Below are positions 15,496 through 22,391 of a DNA stretch of 54,084 nucleotides, in pieces. The DNA is from Actinomycetota bacterium (lineage in GTDB: Bacteria; Actinomycetota; Thermoleophilia; RBG-16-64-13): contig JAHJSA010000037.1 in NCBI GenBank assembly GCA_018830645.1, positions 1-54,084 on the forward strand. The letters are read 5' to 3'. Each line of letters starts with the position of its first letter. The first letter of the stretch is position 1. The notes beneath the pieces are model-generated. The model searched no databases and was not told the origin of the DNA. It was given only the letters and a program-made list of their open reading frames with translations. Made by a program: the position numbers and the translations under genes.

Positions 15496-16746
15496 ATGGA
15501 GCTGACAGAACTAGAACCGAGGCTCCTATCCGACCTGCACGTGGTTGCGGGGGAGCTTGGCATCAAGAACTTCAACAAGTACTCGAAGCAAGACCTCATC
15601 TCGAAGATCTTGAGCGAGCAGTCGGTGGATCGCGGGGTGCAGTACCGCACGGGCCTCTTGGACGTGTTGCCGGACGGTTTCGGCTTCCTGCGCACCATGG
15701 GCTACACGCAGTCCGACTCCGACATCTACGTCTCGTTGTCGCAGATCCGGAGATTCAAGCTCCGTCGCGGCGACGAGATCACGGGGCAGGTGCGCACCCC
15801 GAAGGACAGCGAGAAGTACCACGCTCTGCTCAAGATCCAGACGGTGAACGGCCTCGATCCGGAGCAGGCGCGACACAGGCCGAACTTCGACGCGCTCACT
15901 CCTCTCTTCGCAGAGGATCGGTTGCGTCTCGAGACAACACCGAACCGCATCGCGCCTCGGGTCATGGACCTCATCTGTCCTGTGGGCAAAGGCCAGCGGG
16001 GCCTGATCGTGTCCCCGCCGAAGGCGGGCAAGACCACCATCCTCAAGGAGATCGCCAACTCGATAGCCGAGAACAACCCGGAAGTGCACCTGCTCGTACT
16101 GCTCGTCGACGAGCGGCCCGAAGAGGTCACCGACATGGAGCGCTCGGTGAACGGCGAGGTGGTCAGCTCGACGTTCGATCAGCCTGCGGAGAACCACCTG
16201 CAGGTGACCGAACTCGTGCTCGAGCGCGTCAAGAGGTTGGTGGAAGTCGGGCGAGACGTGGTCGTGCTCCTCGATTCCATCACGAGGCTTGCGCGCGCCT
16301 ACAACCTCGCCGCACCCGCCTCCGGCCGTATCCTTTCGGGCGGGGTGGACTCGGCGGCTCTCTATCCACCGAAGAAGTTCTTCGGGGCCGCGCGGAACAT
16401 CGAAGAGGGGGGATCGCTCACGATCCTGGCGACCGCGCTCGTAGAGACCGGATCGCGCATGGACGAGGTGATCTTCGAGGAGTTCAAAGGCACCGGCAAC
16501 TGGGAGGTGCACCTCAACCGTCAGCTGGCCAACAAGCGCATCTTCCCGGCCATCGACATAGATAAGTCGGGCACCCGCCGTGAAGAGCTCCTCATGGATC
16601 CGGCGGAAGCGAAGATGGTCTGGAAACTCCGCTCCGTGCTTCACGCACTCGACCCGAACGCGGCCATAGAGCTGCTCATCGGCAAGATCAAGGACACGAA
16701 GTCGAACCAGGACTTCCTGGAGGCCATGCGCAAGAACTCCCGTTGA
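15496..16746 (+). CDS. rho: Transcription termination factor Rho
   Basis: 416 aa with the N-terminal Rho_N / cold-shock-like domain, Walker [18 protein letters not shown], and Q- and R-loops. Confidence 0.95.
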
Positions 16747-16801
16747 TACGGGAGTCGCTCGAAGACCGCCCGTTGGGCTTCCGATTGGACGGGAGAGGGC
16801 T

Positions 16802-17794
16802 GTGACTGCTCACATCGGGGTTGCCGGCGTCACCGCCGGCCACGCCACCAACCAGGAGGCCGGCACGGGGTGCACCGTGATCCTGGCCCCGCGGGGGGCT
16901 GTCGCCTCTCTTGACGTGCGGGGCGGCGCGCCCGGCACCCGCGAGACCGACATCCTTTCTCCGTTCTCCACCGTGGGCGAGATCCACGCGGTGCTGCTCA
17001 CCGGCGGGAGTGCCTTCGGCCTCGCCGCCGCCGACGGTGTGGTGGCCTTTCTCGAGGAGCGCGGCCACGGGTATCGCACCCCGTTCTCACTGGTTCCTCT
17101 CGTGCCCGCAGCGGTCATCTACGACCTCGGAGTAGGCCACCCCCACGTACGGCCCCGGGCGGAAGACGGCTATCAGGCGGCGGCCGCGGCGACGGCCGTT
17201 ATCGAGGAGGGGTCGGTCGGCGTGGGCACGGGAGCCACCGTGGGCAAGATCCTCGGCGACGGCGGTTGGATGAAGGGTGGCTTTGGGGTGGCGTCGGTGT
17301 GCCTCCCCGCAGGAGTGACTGTGACGGCCTTGACGGTGGTCAACGCGTTCGGCGACGTGCTCGCCGAGGACGGCACGGTGCTGGCCGGCGCCAGGCGTTC
17401 GGCGGCCGGCAGCGAGGCGGGCGGGGGTCCTCGGGCGGTGAGCGCCGACCAGTTCCTCGATACGCACAGCTATCTGCTGCAGCTCGAAGAGCATCCGCGT
17501 TTCGCGACCGCCGTCGAGCACACGACGCTTTCGGTGGTGGTGACCGATGCCAAGCTCGACAAGACCCAGTGTGCGCAGGTGGCCCGCATGGCTCACGACG
17601 GCTTGGCGCGCGCGATCGCCCCGGTGCACACCCCGGTGGACGGCGACGCCGTCTTCGTGTTGTCTGCCGGGACGCACGGCTCGAACGTGTTCCAGCTCGG
17701 AGCCGCGGCCGCCGACGCTGTCGCGGCCAGCATCCGGCGGGCGGTGCGACTCGCGCGTGGCCGCGTGGGCTTGCCCGGACTCGCCGGACCGTGA
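16802..17794 (+). CDS. P1/S58-family peptidase (DmpA / BapA-like aminopeptidase, Ntn-hydrolase)
   Basis: N-terminal GVTAGHATNQEAGTGCTVIL and the self-processing GGS site (LTGGSAFG) are typical of DmpA-family enzymes. Confidence 0.8.
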   Translation: MTAHIGVAGVTAGHATNQEAGTGCTVILAPRGAVASLDVRGGAPGTRETDILSPFSTVGEIHAVLLTGGSAFGLAAADGVVAFLEERGHGYRTPFSLVPLVPAAVIYDLGVGHPHVRPRAEDGYQAAAAATAVIEEGSVGVGTGATVGKILGDGGWMKGGFGVASVCLPAGVTVTALTVVNAFGDVLAEDGTVLAGARRSAAGSEAGGGPRAVSADQFLDTHSYLLQLEEHPRFATAVEHTTLSVVVTDAKLDKTQCAQVARMAHDGLARAIAPVHTPVDGDAVFVLSAGTHGSNVFQLGAAAADAVAASIRRAVRLARGRVGLPGLAGP

Positions 17795-17887: not shown

Positions 17888-18820
17888 GTGCAGGTGATCA
17901 CGACGAAGGCGGAGATGCGCCGCCTCGTGCGGACGGCGCGCGCCTACCGCTCGGCACAGGAGGCTTCCCGCGCGACGCACGCTTCGGGAGCGGGGGGTTC
18001 GTCTCGGGCGGACGGTGTCGAGCCGGGTCCGGCTGTCGTTGGGTTGGTTCCCACCATGGGCTTTCTGCACGAGGGGCATCTCTCGTTGGCCCGTCGGGCC
18101 CGGTCGGAGTGTGACCTCGTCGTCATGTCGGTCTTCGTCAACCCCACCCAGTTCGGCCCCGAGGAAGACCTCGAGAGCTACCCGCGCGACCTCGGGCGCG
18201 ACGTGGCGGTGGCCGAGGAAGCCGGGGTCGACGTGGTCTTCCATCCGTCGGCTGCCGAGATGTACGCGCCCGGGCACGCGACGTGGGTCGATGTGGAGGG
18301 GCTCACGGAGCATCTCTGTGGGGCGAGCCGTCCGGGGCACTTCCGCGGAGTCACCACAGTGGTCTCCAAGCTCTTCGCGGTGTGTGAGCCCGATCGCGCC
18401 TATTTCGGGAGCAAGGACGCTCAGCAGGCTCTCGTCATCCGCCGCATGGCACGCGACCTCGATCAGGCGGTCGAGGTGATCGTGTGCCCTACGATGCGGG
18501 AGTCCGACGGCTTGGCTATGAGTTCTCGCAACGCCTATCTCACGCCTGCGGAGCGCGCCCAGGCACCCGTTCTGCGCCGGGCCCTCGTCGAGGCAGAAGT
18601 GTCGATCAGCGGAGGGGAGCGCGACCCGCGGGTGGTGGTGGCGGCCGTCGTCGGCAGGCTGGCCGAAGCGCCGTCGGCGTCGGTGGACTACGTCGAGGTG
18701 GTCTCCACGACCGACCTCCGGCCCACTGATCGAATAGACGGTGAAGTGCTCGTGGCCGCCGCCATCCGGCTCGGCGCTACCCGGCTCATCGACAACGTGG
18801 TGGTGTCACCGCCCGGCTGA
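17888..18820 (+). CDS. panC: Pantoate--beta-alanine ligase
   Basis: Motifs PTMGFLHEGHLSL (HIGH-type), QFGPEEDL and FRGVTTVV. It has an N-terminal extension of about 45 aa. Confidence 0.9.
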   Translation: MQVITTKAEMRRLVRTARAYRSAQEASRATHASGAGGSSRADGVEPGPAVVGLVPTMGFLHEGHLSLARRARSECDLVVMSVFVNPTQFGPEEDLESYPRDLGRDVAVAEEAGVDVVFHPSAAEMYAPGHATWVDVEGLTEHLCGASRPGHFRGVTTVVSKLFAVCEPDRAYFGSKDAQQALVIRRMARDLDQAVEVIVCPTMRESDGLAMSSRNAYLTPAERAQAPVLRRALVEAEVSISGGERDPRVVVAAVVGRLAEAPSASVDYVEVVSTTDLRPTDRIDGEVLVAAAIRLGATRLIDNVVVSPPG

Positions 18821-18850
18821 CCGGGGTCTCGTGCGTCACAGCTCCGCGAC

Positions 18851-18940
18851 AGAAGAGCCGGCGCCCCCTTGGTGAGAGGAGCGGCGCCCTTTGGCGAGAA
18901 GAGCGGCGCCCCTTCGGGGAGAGGGCCGGCGCCTCCTACT
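18851..18940. repeat. Four imperfect tandem repeats of about 23 bp (core AGCGGCGCCCCTTnGGnGAGAGG) in the convergent panC / hps-rraA intergenic region
   Basis: Read directly. The units contain GGCGCC palindromic cores and could form a series of stem-loops between the two convergent genes. Confidence 0.5.
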
Positions 18941-20243
18941 TCTTCTCCCACTTGAGTAGGTAGGCCACCTGGCTGAGCGTGCTGCCCTGGCGGATCTCCT
19001 CGCGCAATCGGTTCTCCTTCTCGAGCACGTCCATCGCCCGGTTGGTGTACTCCACCGCCTTCTCGCGCGGGATCACGCAGACTCCGTCGTCGTCGCCGAT
19101 GATCCAGTCGCCCGGGGCGATGGTGACGCCGGCGATGCGGATGGGCACGCCGATCTCTCCGAAACCCTTGGGTTCGCCGGCGGTGGGAGTGACATGGGTT
19201 GTGAAGAGGGGGAAGCCGAGTTCACGGATGTCCCCGGTGTCGCGTGCCGCGCCGTGGATCACGACGCCTGCCAGGCGGCGCTGGATGGCGGAGTTCGTCG
19301 CCAGTTCGCCCCAGACCGCCGGAAGTACGCCGCCTGCGTCGATCACCAGCACGTCACCCTCGTTCGCGACGTCGATCGCTTCTACCGGCTTCGCCCAATC
19401 GCCGGGGTAGGTGCGCACGGTTACCGCGGGGCCCACCATCCGCGCCCCCGGAGTGCGGGCCACCAGGCCGGGCAGATCGCCGGAACGGTGCAGCGCGTCG
19501 CTCACGTTGGCCGCGGATACGCGGGAGAGGGTGTCACGCAGGTCAGGGCCCGAGGCGCGCACGAAGTACTCCGACTCCACCGAGACCAGGTACTGCAACG
19601 CATGCTTGATCTGGCGGGTCGCCTCCGTCGCGTCTGTGGCCTTGGTGATCGCTCCGCCCACCACGACGATCGAGGCGCCGGCCCTGAGGGCCTCGGCCGC
19701 GGTGACGGAATTGATGCCGCCGGCCACCGACACCGGTATCGATACAGCCTCCGCCACCTTGCGGAGCGTGTCGAAGGGGGTCTTCCCTTCCATCTGCTCG
19801 TCGATGGCCACGTGTATGCCGATGTACGCGGCGCCCATGGCCTCAGCCTCGCGCGCCCGCTGCACGGGGTCGGCCACCTGCACCATGTCGACGATGATCT
19901 CGGCTCCATAGTTGCGCCCGGCCTCGACGCACTCGCGGATCGTGGCATCGGAGGCGGCTCCCAAGACGCCCACCACCTGCGCGCCCGCCTTTGCGGCGAA
20001 CTCGACTTCGGCCCGCCCGGCGTCCATGGTCTTCATGTCCGCGACGATGGTCTTCTCGGGCCAACGGGCTCGTAGTGCGCGCACCGCCTCCAAACCTTCG
20101 CTCTTGATGAGGGGAGTGCCCGCCTCGAGCCAGTCGGCTCCTCCGAGAACCGCCTCCTCTGCCACCTTCAGCGCACGGGGCAGGTCGACGAAGTCGAGGG
20201 CGATCTGGAGCTTCGGGCCGGGTGTTCTGCGATCGGCACTCAT
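18936..20243 (-). CDS. Bifunctional fusion: 3-hexulose-6-phosphate synthase-like (OMPDC-fold) N-domain plus RraA-like / class II aldolase-family C-domain
   Basis: N-terminal KLQIALDFVDL...IVADMKTMDAG...VGIHVA is HPS/KGPDC-like. The C-terminal about 200 aa (SRVSAANVSDALHRSGDLPG...GDVLVID...VIHGAARD) is RraA/MenG-like. It is one continuous frame. Confidence 0.8.
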   Translation of the reverse strand: MSADRRTPGPKLQIALDFVDLPRALKVAEEAVLGGADWLEAGTPLIKSEGLEAVRALRARWPEKTIVADMKTMDAGRAEVEFAAKAGAQVVGVLGAASDATIRECVEAGRNYGAEIIVDMVQVADPVQRAREAEAMGAAYIGIHVAIDEQMEGKTPFDTLRKVAEAVSIPVSVAGGINSVTAAEALRAGASIVVVGGAITKATDATEATRQIKHALQYLVSVESEYFVRASGPDLRDTLSRVSAANVSDALHRSGDLPGLVARTPGARMVGPAVTVRTYPGDWAKPVEAIDVANEGDVLVIDAGGVLPAVWGELATNSAIQRRLAGVVIHGAARDTGDIRELGFPLFTTHVTPTAGEPKGFGEIGVPIRIAGVTIAPGDWIIGDDDGVCVIPREKAVEYTNRAMDVLEKENRLREEIRQGSTLSQVAYLLKWEKK

Positions 20244-21781
20244 TCTGTGACTCCCATGAACTGGGCAACGAGTCGCCTGTCGCGGGGCCGGCTGTCGAAG
20301 CAGACGAACACGACCTCCTGCCAGGTACCGAGAGTCAGGCGACCCTCGGTGAAGGGGATGACGAGCGAGGGACCGAGGAGACCGGCCCTCACGTGAGAGT
20401 GGCCGTTCCCGTCGGCGAGAAGTAGGTTGTGGCGGTAGGGGTCGTTAGCCGGCACGATGCGGGCGAACAGCTGCTGGAAGTCGTGCACCACGCCGGGCTC
20501 GAACTCCAGGGTGGTGACCGCGCCGGTAGCTCCCGGCGCGAAGACCGTCACCGTGCCGGCGGTGAGGCCGCTCTCCCGCAGGAGGTGGTTGAGCTGTTGG
20601 GTGATGTCGATGACGTCACCCTCACCTTGGGTCGAGAAGGCGATGGTGCGGGTGAGCACGGTCAGGTCGCCCGTCACCGCTTGGCGGGCTCGCTCTGTCG
20701 TCACGGTCATGATGTTCTCCAGTCTGTCGAGGAGCGGCTCGGGCAGGTCGCCGCGACGGCGAACGAGGTCGAGGGTCGCGACGCCGAGTGTCGTGTAGAG
20801 GGGCAGCAGGTCGGGGGTACGTTCTTCGAGGGCGAGCAGGTGACGTTCTACGGTCTCGACATCGCCGCGCGCAAGGGGGCCGGTGAGAGCCGAGAGCGTG
20901 CCGCCGGCTGCGATGTTGTCCACCGCCCCGCGGACCAGTGGGAGGAAGGCATCGAGCACCTGCTCCTGAGGCAGTCCGCTCTCGAGGAACAGGCGTTCGG
21001 CGACGGCCTCGAGGGCGACCAGGTAGTTGCTCGCCACCACTGCCGCCGCATGGTACAGAGCCCGGTCGCGCTCGGCCAGCCGGAAAGGCCGCGCGCCGAG
21101 TGCGCGGGCCAGACGGAACGCGAAGGCAGACGCCTGCTCGGCGGAAGCGGGATCCTGTGAGCCGGGCGTCACCGCGATGGCGGCACCACGCAGCCGCTCG
21201 GGTCCGAGGGCGGGGTCACTCAGAGTCTGCAGAGGGTGGAACGAGAACGTCAGAGCGCCCGCGGCGGCGCACGGAGCGAGTACGTCGGTGGAGGTGGCCC
21301 CGCTCACGTGGGCGACCGCCCACTGGGGTCCATCGTCAGCCGACTCTCGCACGGCGGCGGCCAGGGCTGCGGCAACCGAAGGCAGCTCCGCGTCGGGCAC
21401 CGTGAGGAGGAACAGCGGGGAAGGAGGGGGCTCCGCGGGGGATGCTGCCGCCGTGGGCGGCTGGGGCGGCGTCGCGGGAACGACGCTGTCTCTCGCCGGC
21501 ACCTTGGCGCGCTCGTCACGGCCGCCGGAGCGCATCTCCGCGACCAGTTCCGACAGCGTATGAGAGGAAGGAACGCCAAGGAGTCCCGCGGCACGGTTGC
21601 GTCCGGCTTCGGATCGTCCGGTGTGTCCCACGAGTCGGGCGCCGCCCGCGGCCAGAGCAAGCGCGATCGAGACGCCGGCCCGTCCGGCTCCGATCACCGC
21701 GAAGCGAACGTCGTCGAGGCGGGCGGGGTCGCGCCGCGCCGGCGCGCTCAGGTCGTCGAGCGAGAGTGCGCGCTGGTGCAC
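20240..21781 (-). CDS. Fusion protein: Rossmann-like DUF2520 domain (putative NAD(P)-dependent reductase often linked to panC) plus C-terminal YjbQ/UPF0047 domain. Start uncertain: GTG at 21781.
   Basis: The Rossmann motif RFAVIGAGRAGVSIALAL and the DUF2520-like body run in the same frame, with no stop, into a YjbQ-like module (MTVTTERA...TVFAPGATGAVTTLEFEPGVVHDF...GTWQEVVFVCFDS). The ORF-track N-terminus (to 22489) overlaps pspC and looks like non-coding frame. Confidence 0.7.
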   Translation of the reverse strand: MHQRALSLDDLSAPARRDPARLDDVRFAVIGAGRAGVSIALALAAGGARLVGHTGRSEAGRNRAAGLLGVPSSHTLSELVAEMRSGGRDERAKVPARDSVVPATPPQPPTAAASPAEPPPSPLFLLTVPDAELPSVAAALAAAVRESADDGPQWAVAHVSGATSTDVLAPCAAAGALTFSFHPLQTLSDPALGPERLRGAAIAVTPGSQDPASAEQASAFAFRLARALGARPFRLAERDRALYHAAAVVASNYLVALEAVAERLFLESGLPQEQVLDAFLPLVRGAVDNIAAGGTLSALTGPLARGDVETVERHLLALEERTPDLLPLYTTLGVATLDLVRRRGDLPEPLLDRLENIMTVTTERARQAVTGDLTVLTRTIAFSTQGEGDVIDITQQLNHLLRESGLTAGTVTVFAPGATGAVTTLEFEPGVVHDFQQLFARIVPANDPYRHNLLLADGNGHSHVRAGLLGPSLVIPFTEGRLTLGTWQEVVFVCFDSRPRDRRLVAQFMGVTE

Positions 21782-22178
21782 AGCTGCGCCAGGGGCGGCT
21801 TGGATGTCCCGCGATGGGGGCGAAGATGAGTCGATAATGTGACCTTCCGTTCCAGTTCTGCGTTCAGATACCAGACATCGGTCGAGCTGTGCGGTTGACG
21901 TACCCGTCCTGGGTGCGGAGCCGTAGCCATGCGGTACACCTCTGGAAGGTAGGCGTCCTGGTTGTGACCCATCACGAGGATAGCAGGCAGGAGAGAGCTG
22001 TTCAAAGGGCGGGGCGTTCCAGCGGCGCCCGGGTCGGCGGCGCACGGCACCTTGGTCGGCAGCACGCGGCGCTCGGCTCGGGAACATCCACCCCTGTGGA
22101 TACGTATCTTGAAGATGAGGGGACGATACTCGAAGTCCGTGATGGGGCTCGGGCCGTGCCGACGTTGATGAGGAGGAT

Positions 22179-22391
22179 ATGATGGCCAGGAAGCTCACGA
22201 GGTCGCGTGACGAGAAGATGATCTGCGGGGTTGCCGCAGGCCTGGCTGAGTACTTCGACATCGATGCGACGATCATGCGGCTGATCTGGGTGGTCGCCGT
22301 GCTCATGCCCGGGCCGAACCTGATCATCATCGCGGCGTATCTGGTACTCTGCCTACTCATGCCGCTCAAGACCGCGAACGGCGCGTCCTGA
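22179..22391 (+). CDS. PspC-domain protein (phage-shock protein C family), 70 aa
   Basis: RSRDEKMICGVAAGLAEYFDIDATIMRLIWVV followed by a TM helix, the canonical PspC domain. A strong GAGGAGG Shine-Dalgarno precedes it. Confidence 0.7.
   Translation: MMARKLTRSRDEKMICGVAAGLAEYFDIDATIMRLIWVVAVLMPGPNLIIIAAYLVLCLLMPLKTANGAS

Follow-up and report, generated by a model that had tools for sequence, protein, structure and literature searches.

A gene fusion of a PanG-type reductase and YjbQ in a Thermoleophilia bacterium, and a candidate pantoate-branch role for YjbQ

Exploring a 54,084-nucleotide stretch of DNA from a bacterium of the Actinomycetota (class Thermoleophilia; GenBank contig JAHJSA010000037.1, hereafter the window), we found that a single gene on the minus strand joins a Rossmann reductase of the DUF2520 family to a member of the YjbQ/UPF0047 family. 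The fusion is a genuine gene, its N-terminal two thirds being a PanG-type reductase and its C-terminal third a complete YjbQ-family domain. Its product is best read as a bifunctional PanG-YjbQ protein that serves the pantoate branch, and we consider it fairly probable that YjbQ acts in this branch together with PanG and with HPS-RraA, the product of the next gene, in which 3-hexulose-6-phosphate synthase (HPS) is joined to an RraA-like domain. The parts (PanG, YjbQ, HPS-RraA and the pan RNA motif) are already known, and fused proteins are already public under a misleading name; in the literature we found no description of the fusion, its recurrent origin, the logic of its operon, a pan element in Thermoleophilia or the conserved AUC start described below.

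A reductase and a complete YjbQ domain in one reading frame

Analysis of open reading frames (ORFs) showed that the minus-strand frame ending with the stop TGA at 20242-20240 is open as far as 22489, and Pfam places three domains in it: Rossmann, DUF2520 and a complete YjbQ/UPF0047. The first-pass annotation, made from the sequence alone, had proposed such a single-frame fusion with an internal Met at 20710, and both points were borne out by the Pfam and NCBIfam matches in one open frame and by the ATG at 20710-20708. We place the gene, panG(DUF2520)-yjbQ, at 20240-21835 (minus) on the evidence of the ORF, the sequence, Pfam, NCBIfam, 22 clusters of fused homologues and a conserved in-frame ATC; the protein is 531 amino acids long counted from the ATC at 21835-21833 and 513 counted from the GTG at 21781. 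The Rossmann NAD(P)-binding domain (VRFAVIGAGRAG..., 21167-21712, minus), delimited by PF10727 and alignments, is followed by the helical C-terminal DUF2520 domain of PanG-type reductases (20780-21142, minus), delimited by PF10728, sequence matches in the PDB and Foldseek, by the junction and linker (20636-20720, minus) and by the complete YjbQ/UPF0047 domain (20252-20635, minus), delimited by PF01894, TIGR00149, Foldseek and identities. The junction reads ...LDRLENIMTVTTERARQ... with no stop codon; a longer excerpt, ...LDRLENIMTVTTERARQAVTG..., is likewise free of stops and contains the internal ATG. An AlphaFold (AF2) monomer model of the protein had a mean predicted local distance difference test score (pLDDT) of 87.7 and a predicted template modelling score of 0.73, with both domains confident, and among the structure matches no PDB chain spans both halves.

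The reductase half matches PF10727 (Rossmann-like) with 45.1 bits (cut-off 23) and PF10728 (DUF2520), the family to which the first-pass annotation had wanted its alignment checked, with 109.8 bits (cut-off 25). Its GxGxxG motif reads VIGAGRAG, with G31, G33 and G36 nearly invariant among 83 sequences, and forms a beta-alpha-beta unit in the model. The structural-genomics DUF2520 proteins 2i76 and 3d1l match the N-terminal part by sequence and by fold, 3d1l with a template modelling (TM) score of 0.81 in a Foldseek search with the model; this is the fold of TM1727/BF3122. The next fold matches were pyrroline-5-carboxylate reductases, arogenate dehydrogenases, ketol-acid reductoisomerases and imine reductases, a family that reduces 2-oxoacids and imines with NAD(P)H and that the N-terminal part, as modelled, fits. 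The Rossmann domain also carries a proline-rich, low-complexity insertion at about 21430-21540 (minus; residues ~85-120), which varies in length among homologues and has a pLDDT of 59-78.

As to the substrate, a passage of PMC11626117, citing Pepi et al. 2022, refers to Rv3603c of M. tuberculosis as 'PanG, the exclusive ketopantoate reductase', and a passage of PMC4572677, citing Miller et al. 2013, states that a DUF2520 protein is homologous to FTT1388 and EF1861, both of them PanG. Behind the same leader as that of the window gene, relatives carry the orders DUF2520>panC>panD>panB (L163, L126) and DUF2520>panC>panB (L150, L183), in which DUF2520 is the sole candidate for the reductase step; in the window, panC lies within 1.5 kb of DUF2520. 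We take FTT1388 and Rv3603c to belong to the DUF2520 family, in part from Pfam-family statements in PMC4572677. By analogy with these proteins, the DUF2520 family would consist of PanG-type ketopantoate reductases and its function would no longer be unknown. The reductase identity given by the first-pass annotation thus stands, while its wording that DUF2520 proteins are merely proposed as such enzymes is superseded by those passages of PMC11626117 and PMC4572677 that describe PanG as ketopantoate reductase. The 'PanG' of B. subtilis (YkpB) is a PanE paralogue outside the DUF2520 family.

The YjbQ half matches PF01894 with 110 bits (cut-off 27) over positions 1-116 of the 117 of the profile, and TIGR00149 with 91.7 bits (cut-off 67.75), a model graded 'hypothetical equivalog'. 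Nine solved YjbQ structures match this part by sequence, and the YjbQ fold was recovered with target TM scores of 0.70-0.74 (1ve0, 1vph, 1vmj, 1xbf, 2p6c, 1vmh, 1vmf and 2p6h). Comparing the window with L003, a contig carrying the same fusion, we found 82.5% identity in the YjbQ part and 53.4% in the reductase part, and an alignment of 22 fused proteins revealed invariant runs in the former (PGATG, TTLEFE, GVV.DF and NGH.HVRAGL.GPS). Judged by these alignments, the YjbQ part is under strong constraint. The loop at residues 440-470, which bears the most conserved motif, is of low confidence in the monomer model.

Searching 5.8 billion proteins, we obtained 22 clusters (P0001-P0022) of 45-100% identity, all with the three domains; the 21 clusters other than that of the window are 45-86% identical and come from JGI, ENA, NCBI and Logan assemblies. 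The NCBI members are metagenome-assembled genomes (MAGs) of Thermoleophilia. The in-frame junction is also present in the DNA of the independent contigs L188 (83% identity), L003/L004 (two samples) and L001, and again in L154, L164, L167 and L173. Adjacent genes turned into one by a lost stop codon or a one-base indel in sequencing or assembly could have produced such a frame, and it is true that most relatives carry two genes in different frames and that frameshift errors occur in some of the long-read contigs compared (L002, L005 and L007). The same in-frame junction, however, recurs at 83-86% identity in short-read assemblies made independently (P0002-P0004, L188) as well as in clades farther off, and across the 22 fused proteins the linker, for all its differences in length (insertions reach ~30 residues), is never out of frame; an error in the window is therefore excluded for practical purposes, and we give it next to no probability. 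Separate genes with a stop at the junction, which the first-pass annotation had regarded as telling against the fusion if accompanied by a sequencing error, were indeed seen in most relatives, but such an error found no support; since the fused state is reproduced independently, the separate genes do not refute it. Among the best 150 matches to 1.84 billion cluster representatives, one representative covers both domains, indicating that the architecture is confined to a narrow lineage.

An apparent DUF2520-PanC-YjbQ triple fusion of 803 amino acids (P0052) was rejected: its contig, L002, shifts frame within panC and within hps-rraA, and P0052 is therefore an artefact of calling genes on an error-prone long-read assembly. 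The order DUF2520>panC>yjbQ in L002 is nonetheless real, being found in 15 other loci. Frameshift errors in the long-read metagenome contigs L002, L005, L007 and L009 yield false fusions, as in P0052, or false splits of panC, the S58 peptidase gene and hps-rraA, and domain architectures from such contigs are untrustworthy unless their frames are checked.

Origin of the fusion, start codon and leader RNA

To collect the loci of relatives, one genome per GTDB species was scanned with the fusion alignment, complemented by tblastn and ORF analysis. DUF2520 is directly followed by yjbQ in 47 loci, 39 with two genes and 8 with a fused one; adjacent separate genes, for which the first-pass annotation had suggested looking, are thus the common state. 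In at least 20 of the 39 two-gene loci the stop and start codons share the letters ATGA, as in ...GGAGGACACTTTCATGACG... of L005. When fused and unfused junctions were compared, the fused genes proved to keep ATG(A) and, spaced before it as a Shine-Dalgarno sequence would be, a GGAG; the relic in the window reads ctGGAGaacatcATGAcc at 20720-20707, with GGAG at 20720-20717 and the former yjbQ start at 20710-20708, followed by A. Given the overlaps of the unfused genes and the retained GGAG and ATG(A), we concluded that a one-base slip of the upstream frame, close to the end of the reductase gene, abolished the stop of an ATGA overlap and so made the fusion. Free YjbQ may also be made from the internal ribosome-binding site and ATG that persist. 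In a neighbour-joining tree of the concatenated domains, without support values, the fused loci fall in three separate clades among unfused relatives (the window with L173, L004 and L167; L164 alone; L001 with L154), which in so simple a tree indicates at least three independent fusion events.

The 5' end at GTG 21781, as first annotated, is probably wrong. In the alignment this GTG is unconserved in the closest relatives, and an ATC in frame with DUF2520, 12-14 nt past a leader hairpin and preceded by a Shine-Dalgarno-like AGGCAGG or GGAAGG, is present in ~32 of 39 distinct loci. L121 leaves little choice: the frame is closed by a stop two codons before the ATC, Rossmann beta-1 starts nine codons after it, and the interval has no ATG, GTG or TTG, so that translation there must begin at or very near the ATC. 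From this conservation, the window gene more likely extends over 20240-21835 and AUC is probably its non-canonical start. The window ATC occupies 21833-21835 and is adjoined by an ATT at 21836-21838 (minus); besides L121, the conserved ATC occurs in L020, L031, L093 and others. Set beside a regulatory hairpin, so weak a start codon may itself contribute to control.

That hairpin, at 21848-21877 (minus), is of the pan-motif type and reads UGUCUGGU-A-UCUG[AACG]CAGAACUGG-A-ACG with two bulged A; the minimum free energy fold of 21828-21885 yields the stem with both bulges, and a Shine-Dalgarno-like GGAAGG (21848-21843) abuts its 3' end. According to its description (PMC2864571), the pan motif is a stem bearing two conserved bulged A that mostly occurs as tandem copies ahead of panB, panC or panD. 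A 28-nt core, GTCTGGTATCT-N7-GAACTGGAAC (21876-21849 in the window), lies upstream of DUF2520 in each of the 20 type-A loci collected solely through protein similarity. Scanning metagenome contigs for the exact pattern, we obtained 100 loci, 55 of them upstream of DUF2520 and 5 upstream of panC; in L131, L147, L172 and L174 the hairpin is followed by panC, panD, yjbQ and, where the contig reaches, hps-rraA. On ~15 contigs of low GC content it stands ahead of the S component of an energy-coupling factor transporter, mostly followed by a type III pantothenate kinase gene (coaX), and the element there is the second of two tandem hairpins. We discarded ~10 loci (L101, L111, L116, L178 and others) as coding matches, 'LLWYLRDELEL' in the 2Fe-2S subunits of molybdenum hydroxylases, and the remainder are too close to a contig end for a downstream gene. 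The 20 specified bases of the core recur in those 2Fe-2S genes, where searches for the motif by pattern will thus return false positives.

Positions 7822-7910 of L104 match the Rfam family RF01749 with 37.8 bits (gathering threshold 36.2), and the window hairpin corresponds to the second hairpin of this match at all conserved positions. Searched with RF01749, the window leader, with one canonical hairpin, gave no match at the gathering threshold or at E-values up to 10; since the element alone falls below every Rfam threshold, we regard it as half of a pan element or a variant of one. By eye, the leader alignment shows another hairpin upstream, GG-ACGCCU-[loop]-AGGUGU-A-CC (21933-21958, minus), with compensatory changes across loci, which may be a degenerate first pan hairpin. 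Farther upstream lies a promoter-like TTGAAC-17 nt-TATCCT (21977-22005, minus) in conserved columns of the alignment, TTGnnn-17-TAT(C/T)CT; a consensus scan of 18700-22300 called no promoter or terminator, this pair being below threshold. A seemingly conserved small upstream ORF, 'VWYLxAELER', was dismissed: it stands in different frames relative to the main gene from locus to locus, and in several loci it lacks a start codon, indicating that the conservation is at the level of the RNA, that is, of the pan hairpin. The position of the hairpin upstream of the operon places the whole of it, yjbQ and hps-rraA included, in the pantothenate regulon. Whether or not the pathway proposed below is real, the pan element is thereby extended to Actinomycetota and to new target genes.

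The downstream gene and the panB slot

The fusion gene, which heads its operon, ends in an ATGA overlap (20240-20243, minus) with the start of the next gene, an overlap also present in L003 and L188 and predicted to couple translation of the two. That gene (18936-20243, minus; PF00215 and PF03737) encodes a 435-residue fusion of HPS with an RraA-like domain of the type of the 4-hydroxy-4-methyl-2-oxoglutarate/4-carboxy-4-hydroxy-2-oxoadipate (HMG/CHA) aldolases. Its HPS domain scores 222 bits with TIGR03128 (cut-off 200), its RraA-like domain 152.8 bits with PF03737, and residues 10-435 align to positions 4-429 of the 430 of NF005442/PRK07028 with 586.2 bits (cut-off 593). In its RraA-like half the protein is akin to the long class with enzymatic activity (3k4i; HMG/CHA aldolase 3noj) and keeps the Arg-Asp pair aligned to 3noj, a pair that we take to be missing from E. 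coli RraA. Homologues of the whole protein are 78-97% identical among the best 120 matches. We found nothing on HPS-RraA fusions in the literature.

The first-pass annotation had placed the fusion next to panC. The pantoate-beta-alanine ligase gene panC (17888-18820, plus; PF02569 344.5 bits, TIGR00018 318.6 bits) is indeed nearby, but the immediate neighbour is the HPS/RraA-like gene between them, and panC is convergent to the operon; the context given at that time was incomplete, since this gene, the steady companion of yjbQ, and the leader RNA were both missing from it. An S58 peptidase gene (16670-17794, plus) immediately precedes panC on its strand and is also found in L001, where the two overlap, in L003 and in most type-A loci; S58 peptidase and rho stand behind panC in an arrangement kept down to 45% identity of the fusion protein. 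No panD was found near panC in these type-A loci. The S58 peptidase, of the DmpA/BapA-type family that includes beta-aminopeptidases, might supply the beta-alanine.

Reading gene order in the DNA fetched, up to 10 kb round each operon, revealed six arrangements: DUF2520>yjbQ>hps-rraA in 50 loci, some of them cut by contig ends, DUF2520>panC>yjbQ>hps-rraA in 15, panC>panD>yjbQ>hps-rraA in four, DUF2520>panC>panD>panB and DUF2520>panC>panB in two each, and panC>panB in one. Within this DNA, 69 of the 74 operons have yjbQ and hps, five have panB and none has both, indicating that yjbQ and hps-rraA sit together in the slot of panB. The alternation suggests a non-orthologous displacement of PanB. 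The best 120 PanB homologues are all of Solirubrobacterales type, and none is on an operon-bearing contig; more divergent PanB proteins lie beyond these 120.

The link between DUF2520 and YjbQ, which the first-pass annotation had drawn from the fusion, gained support from their adjacency, mostly with ATGA overlap, in ~70 related loci, from the fusion in at least three clades, from the pan hairpin upstream and from a further lineage in which panC stands between DUF2520 and yjbQ on the same strand.

Role of YjbQ and comparison with known systems

In the reading that we favor, a pantoate-branch role of YjbQ, the reductase part would convert ketopantoate to pantoate, which the nearby PanC would then join to beta-alanine, and the YjbQ part would work in the same branch together with HPS-RraA. 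The fusion would set a 1:1 supply of YjbQ and reductase and probably tether the two physically; in related operons yjbQ and hps-rraA take exactly the place that panB, with or without panD, has in other relatives.

A more specific proposal, which we advance tentatively and with clearly less confidence than a pantoate-branch role as such, is that in a large group of Thermoleophilia YjbQ and HPS/RraA form a folate-independent route to ketopantoate that replaces PanB. PanB puts a one-carbon unit at the level of formaldehyde on 2-oxoisovalerate, and HPS reversibly frees formaldehyde from hexulose 6-phosphate. Aldolases of the HMG/CHA type make and break 4-hydroxy-2-oxoacids; ketopantoate is itself such an acid, and a 4-hydroxy-2-oxoacid aldolase could in principle make it from 2-oxoisovalerate and formaldehyde. 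In such a bypass, formaldehyde liberated by HPS from hexulose 6-phosphate would be condensed with 2-oxoisovalerate to ketopantoate by the RraA-like class II aldolase (the orphan ketopantoaldolase reaction, Enzyme Commission number EC 4.1.2.12), YjbQ would provide an accessory step, for example a sugar-phosphate isomerization, and the fused PanG domain would reduce the ketopantoate without delay. Switching of the entire unit would fall to the pan-motif leader with its conserved AUC start.

Several observations weigh against a pantoate role of YjbQ. Free-standing YjbQ proteins, 50-62% identical to the window domain, occur in Chloroflexi and archaea without pantothenate neighbors, so that the chemistry of the domain is probably generic; beside them recur lineage-specific large ORFs and electron-transfer-type ORFs, tentatively read as carB and pyrK, that give no functional clue. 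We know of no biochemical activity of YjbQ beyond weak 'secondary' ones, and found no newer function in the literature. Most relatives work unfused, which makes the fusion unnecessary for function, and the count of fusion events comes from that simple tree. The high conservation of HPS-RraA is more in keeping with central metabolism (the ribulose monophosphate pathway) than with a step of low flux in vitamin synthesis. Neither L006 nor the type-B loci of the genome scan gave a match to our pattern for the pan hairpin, and the panB-free state was seen within the 10 kb or less fetched round each operon.

Part of this evidence would suit a neutral fusion, in which yjbQ and hps-rraA are a housekeeping ribulose-monophosphate/formaldehyde module that happens to lie downstream of panG and is uninformative on pantothenate. 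An ATGA overlap makes fusion a one-step event, HPS-RraA is conserved like the central enzymes, YjbQ stands free elsewhere outside any pan context, and yjbQ is always beside hps-rraA and not always beside DUF2520, panC or panD preceding it in some loci. Yet four architectures, panC>panD>yjbQ>hps-rraA among them, keep the pair right behind pantothenate genes and have overlapping stops and starts and the pan hairpin in common; among the loci found via YjbQ in this lineage no module lies away from pan genes, and the module alternates with panB at one position. In view of this a neutral fusion seems possible and rather unlikely. It is less probable still, and in our view improbable, that the YjbQ domain is no pathway enzyme and serves as a structural or regulatory appendage, a trimerization scaffold or a small-molecule sensor tuning PanG. 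YjbQ proteins are compact trimers, the solved ones are recorded merely as small proteins of unknown function, and the low-confidence loop at residues 440-470 of the monomer model is what would be expected of an interface; the domain is, however, better conserved than the enzyme that it would regulate, and YjbQ is usually a separate polypeptide whose constant neighbor is hps-rraA, not DUF2520. That the protein is a 'secondary thiamine-phosphate synthase' and the locus one of thiamine is very improbable. Its support is the name given to fused homologues by NCBI ('secondary thiamine-phosphate synthase enzyme YjbQ') and JGI and a TIGR00149 score above cut-off; that model is of 'hypothetical equivalog' grade, and the context is that of pantothenate throughout, with no thiamine gene or thiamine pyrophosphate riboswitch in the window. 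The name reportedly goes back to a weak multicopy-suppressor activity described by Morett et al. in 2008; as an annotation of the fused proteins it is almost certainly misleading.

YjbQ/UPF0047 is widely conserved and has many solved structures and an unknown physiological role, for which this locus is the first consistent pathway context: fusion to PanG, coupling to an HPS/aldolase, a pan leader and alternation with panB make a concrete, testable hypothesis. If the bypass is true, predictions of pantothenate prototrophy for Thermoleophilia MAGs that rest on 'panB missing' need revising, YjbQ gains a first physiological role and the orphan EC 4.1.2.12 gains a gene; if it is false, the locus still documents the repeated conversion of overlapping stop and start codons into fusions. 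The interest of the locus, moderate for the fusion as such, is higher for the pointer it gives to what YjbQ does and to a PanB bypass that may exist.

Set beside known systems, the reductase half shares with the PanG proteins of Francisella (FTT1388), E. faecalis (EF1861) and M. tuberculosis (Rv3603c), to which it is likened by family membership, the Rossmann-like plus DUF2520 architecture and the pantothenate neighborhood, and in its relatives DUF2520 takes the reductase step in a panG-panC-panD-panB operon; unlike them, the window protein has a C-terminal YjbQ domain and a proline-rich Rossmann insertion. The YjbQ half resembles the YjbQ/UPF0047 proteins (E. coli YjbQ, B. subtilis YugU; 1ve0, 1vph, 1vmh, 1vmj, 2p6c, 2p6h) in its full-length match to the family model and in fold, whereas the solved or described members are stand-alone proteins of ~135-150 amino acids, the solved matches all being recorded as 'hypothetical', and the window domain is joined to a reductase. 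Where 1ve0 and 2p6h have the stretch 'HTT...NE', the window has 'GATG...LE', a variant common to the free-standing Chloroflexi and archaeal homologues. The leader agrees with the pan RNA motif (RF01749; Weinberg et al. 2010, PMC2864571) in its hairpin with two bulged A ahead of pantothenate genes, and differs in having one canonical hairpin with a degenerate one upstream, below threshold, in its host, a member of the Thermoleophilia (Actinomycetota), where the 2010 description gives three phyla, unnamed, including that of B. subtilis, and in the genes regulated, which here include DUF2520/panG, yjbQ and hps-rraA. To PanB (PF02548) the equivalence of yjbQ and hps-rraA is a proposed one, based on their place in the panB slot of related operons; neither has any relationship to it in sequence or fold. 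The downstream protein aligns over its full length to PRK07028, 'bifunctional hexulose-6-phosphate synthase/ribonuclease regulator', with a score just below the cut-off, and, as in the archaeal Fae-Hps and Hps-Phi fusions of the ribulose monophosphate pathway, HPS is joined in it to a partner that handles its substrate or formaldehyde; the pantothenate operon and the yjbQ partner of the window gene are undescribed for Fae-Hps, Hps-Phi and PRK07028 alike.

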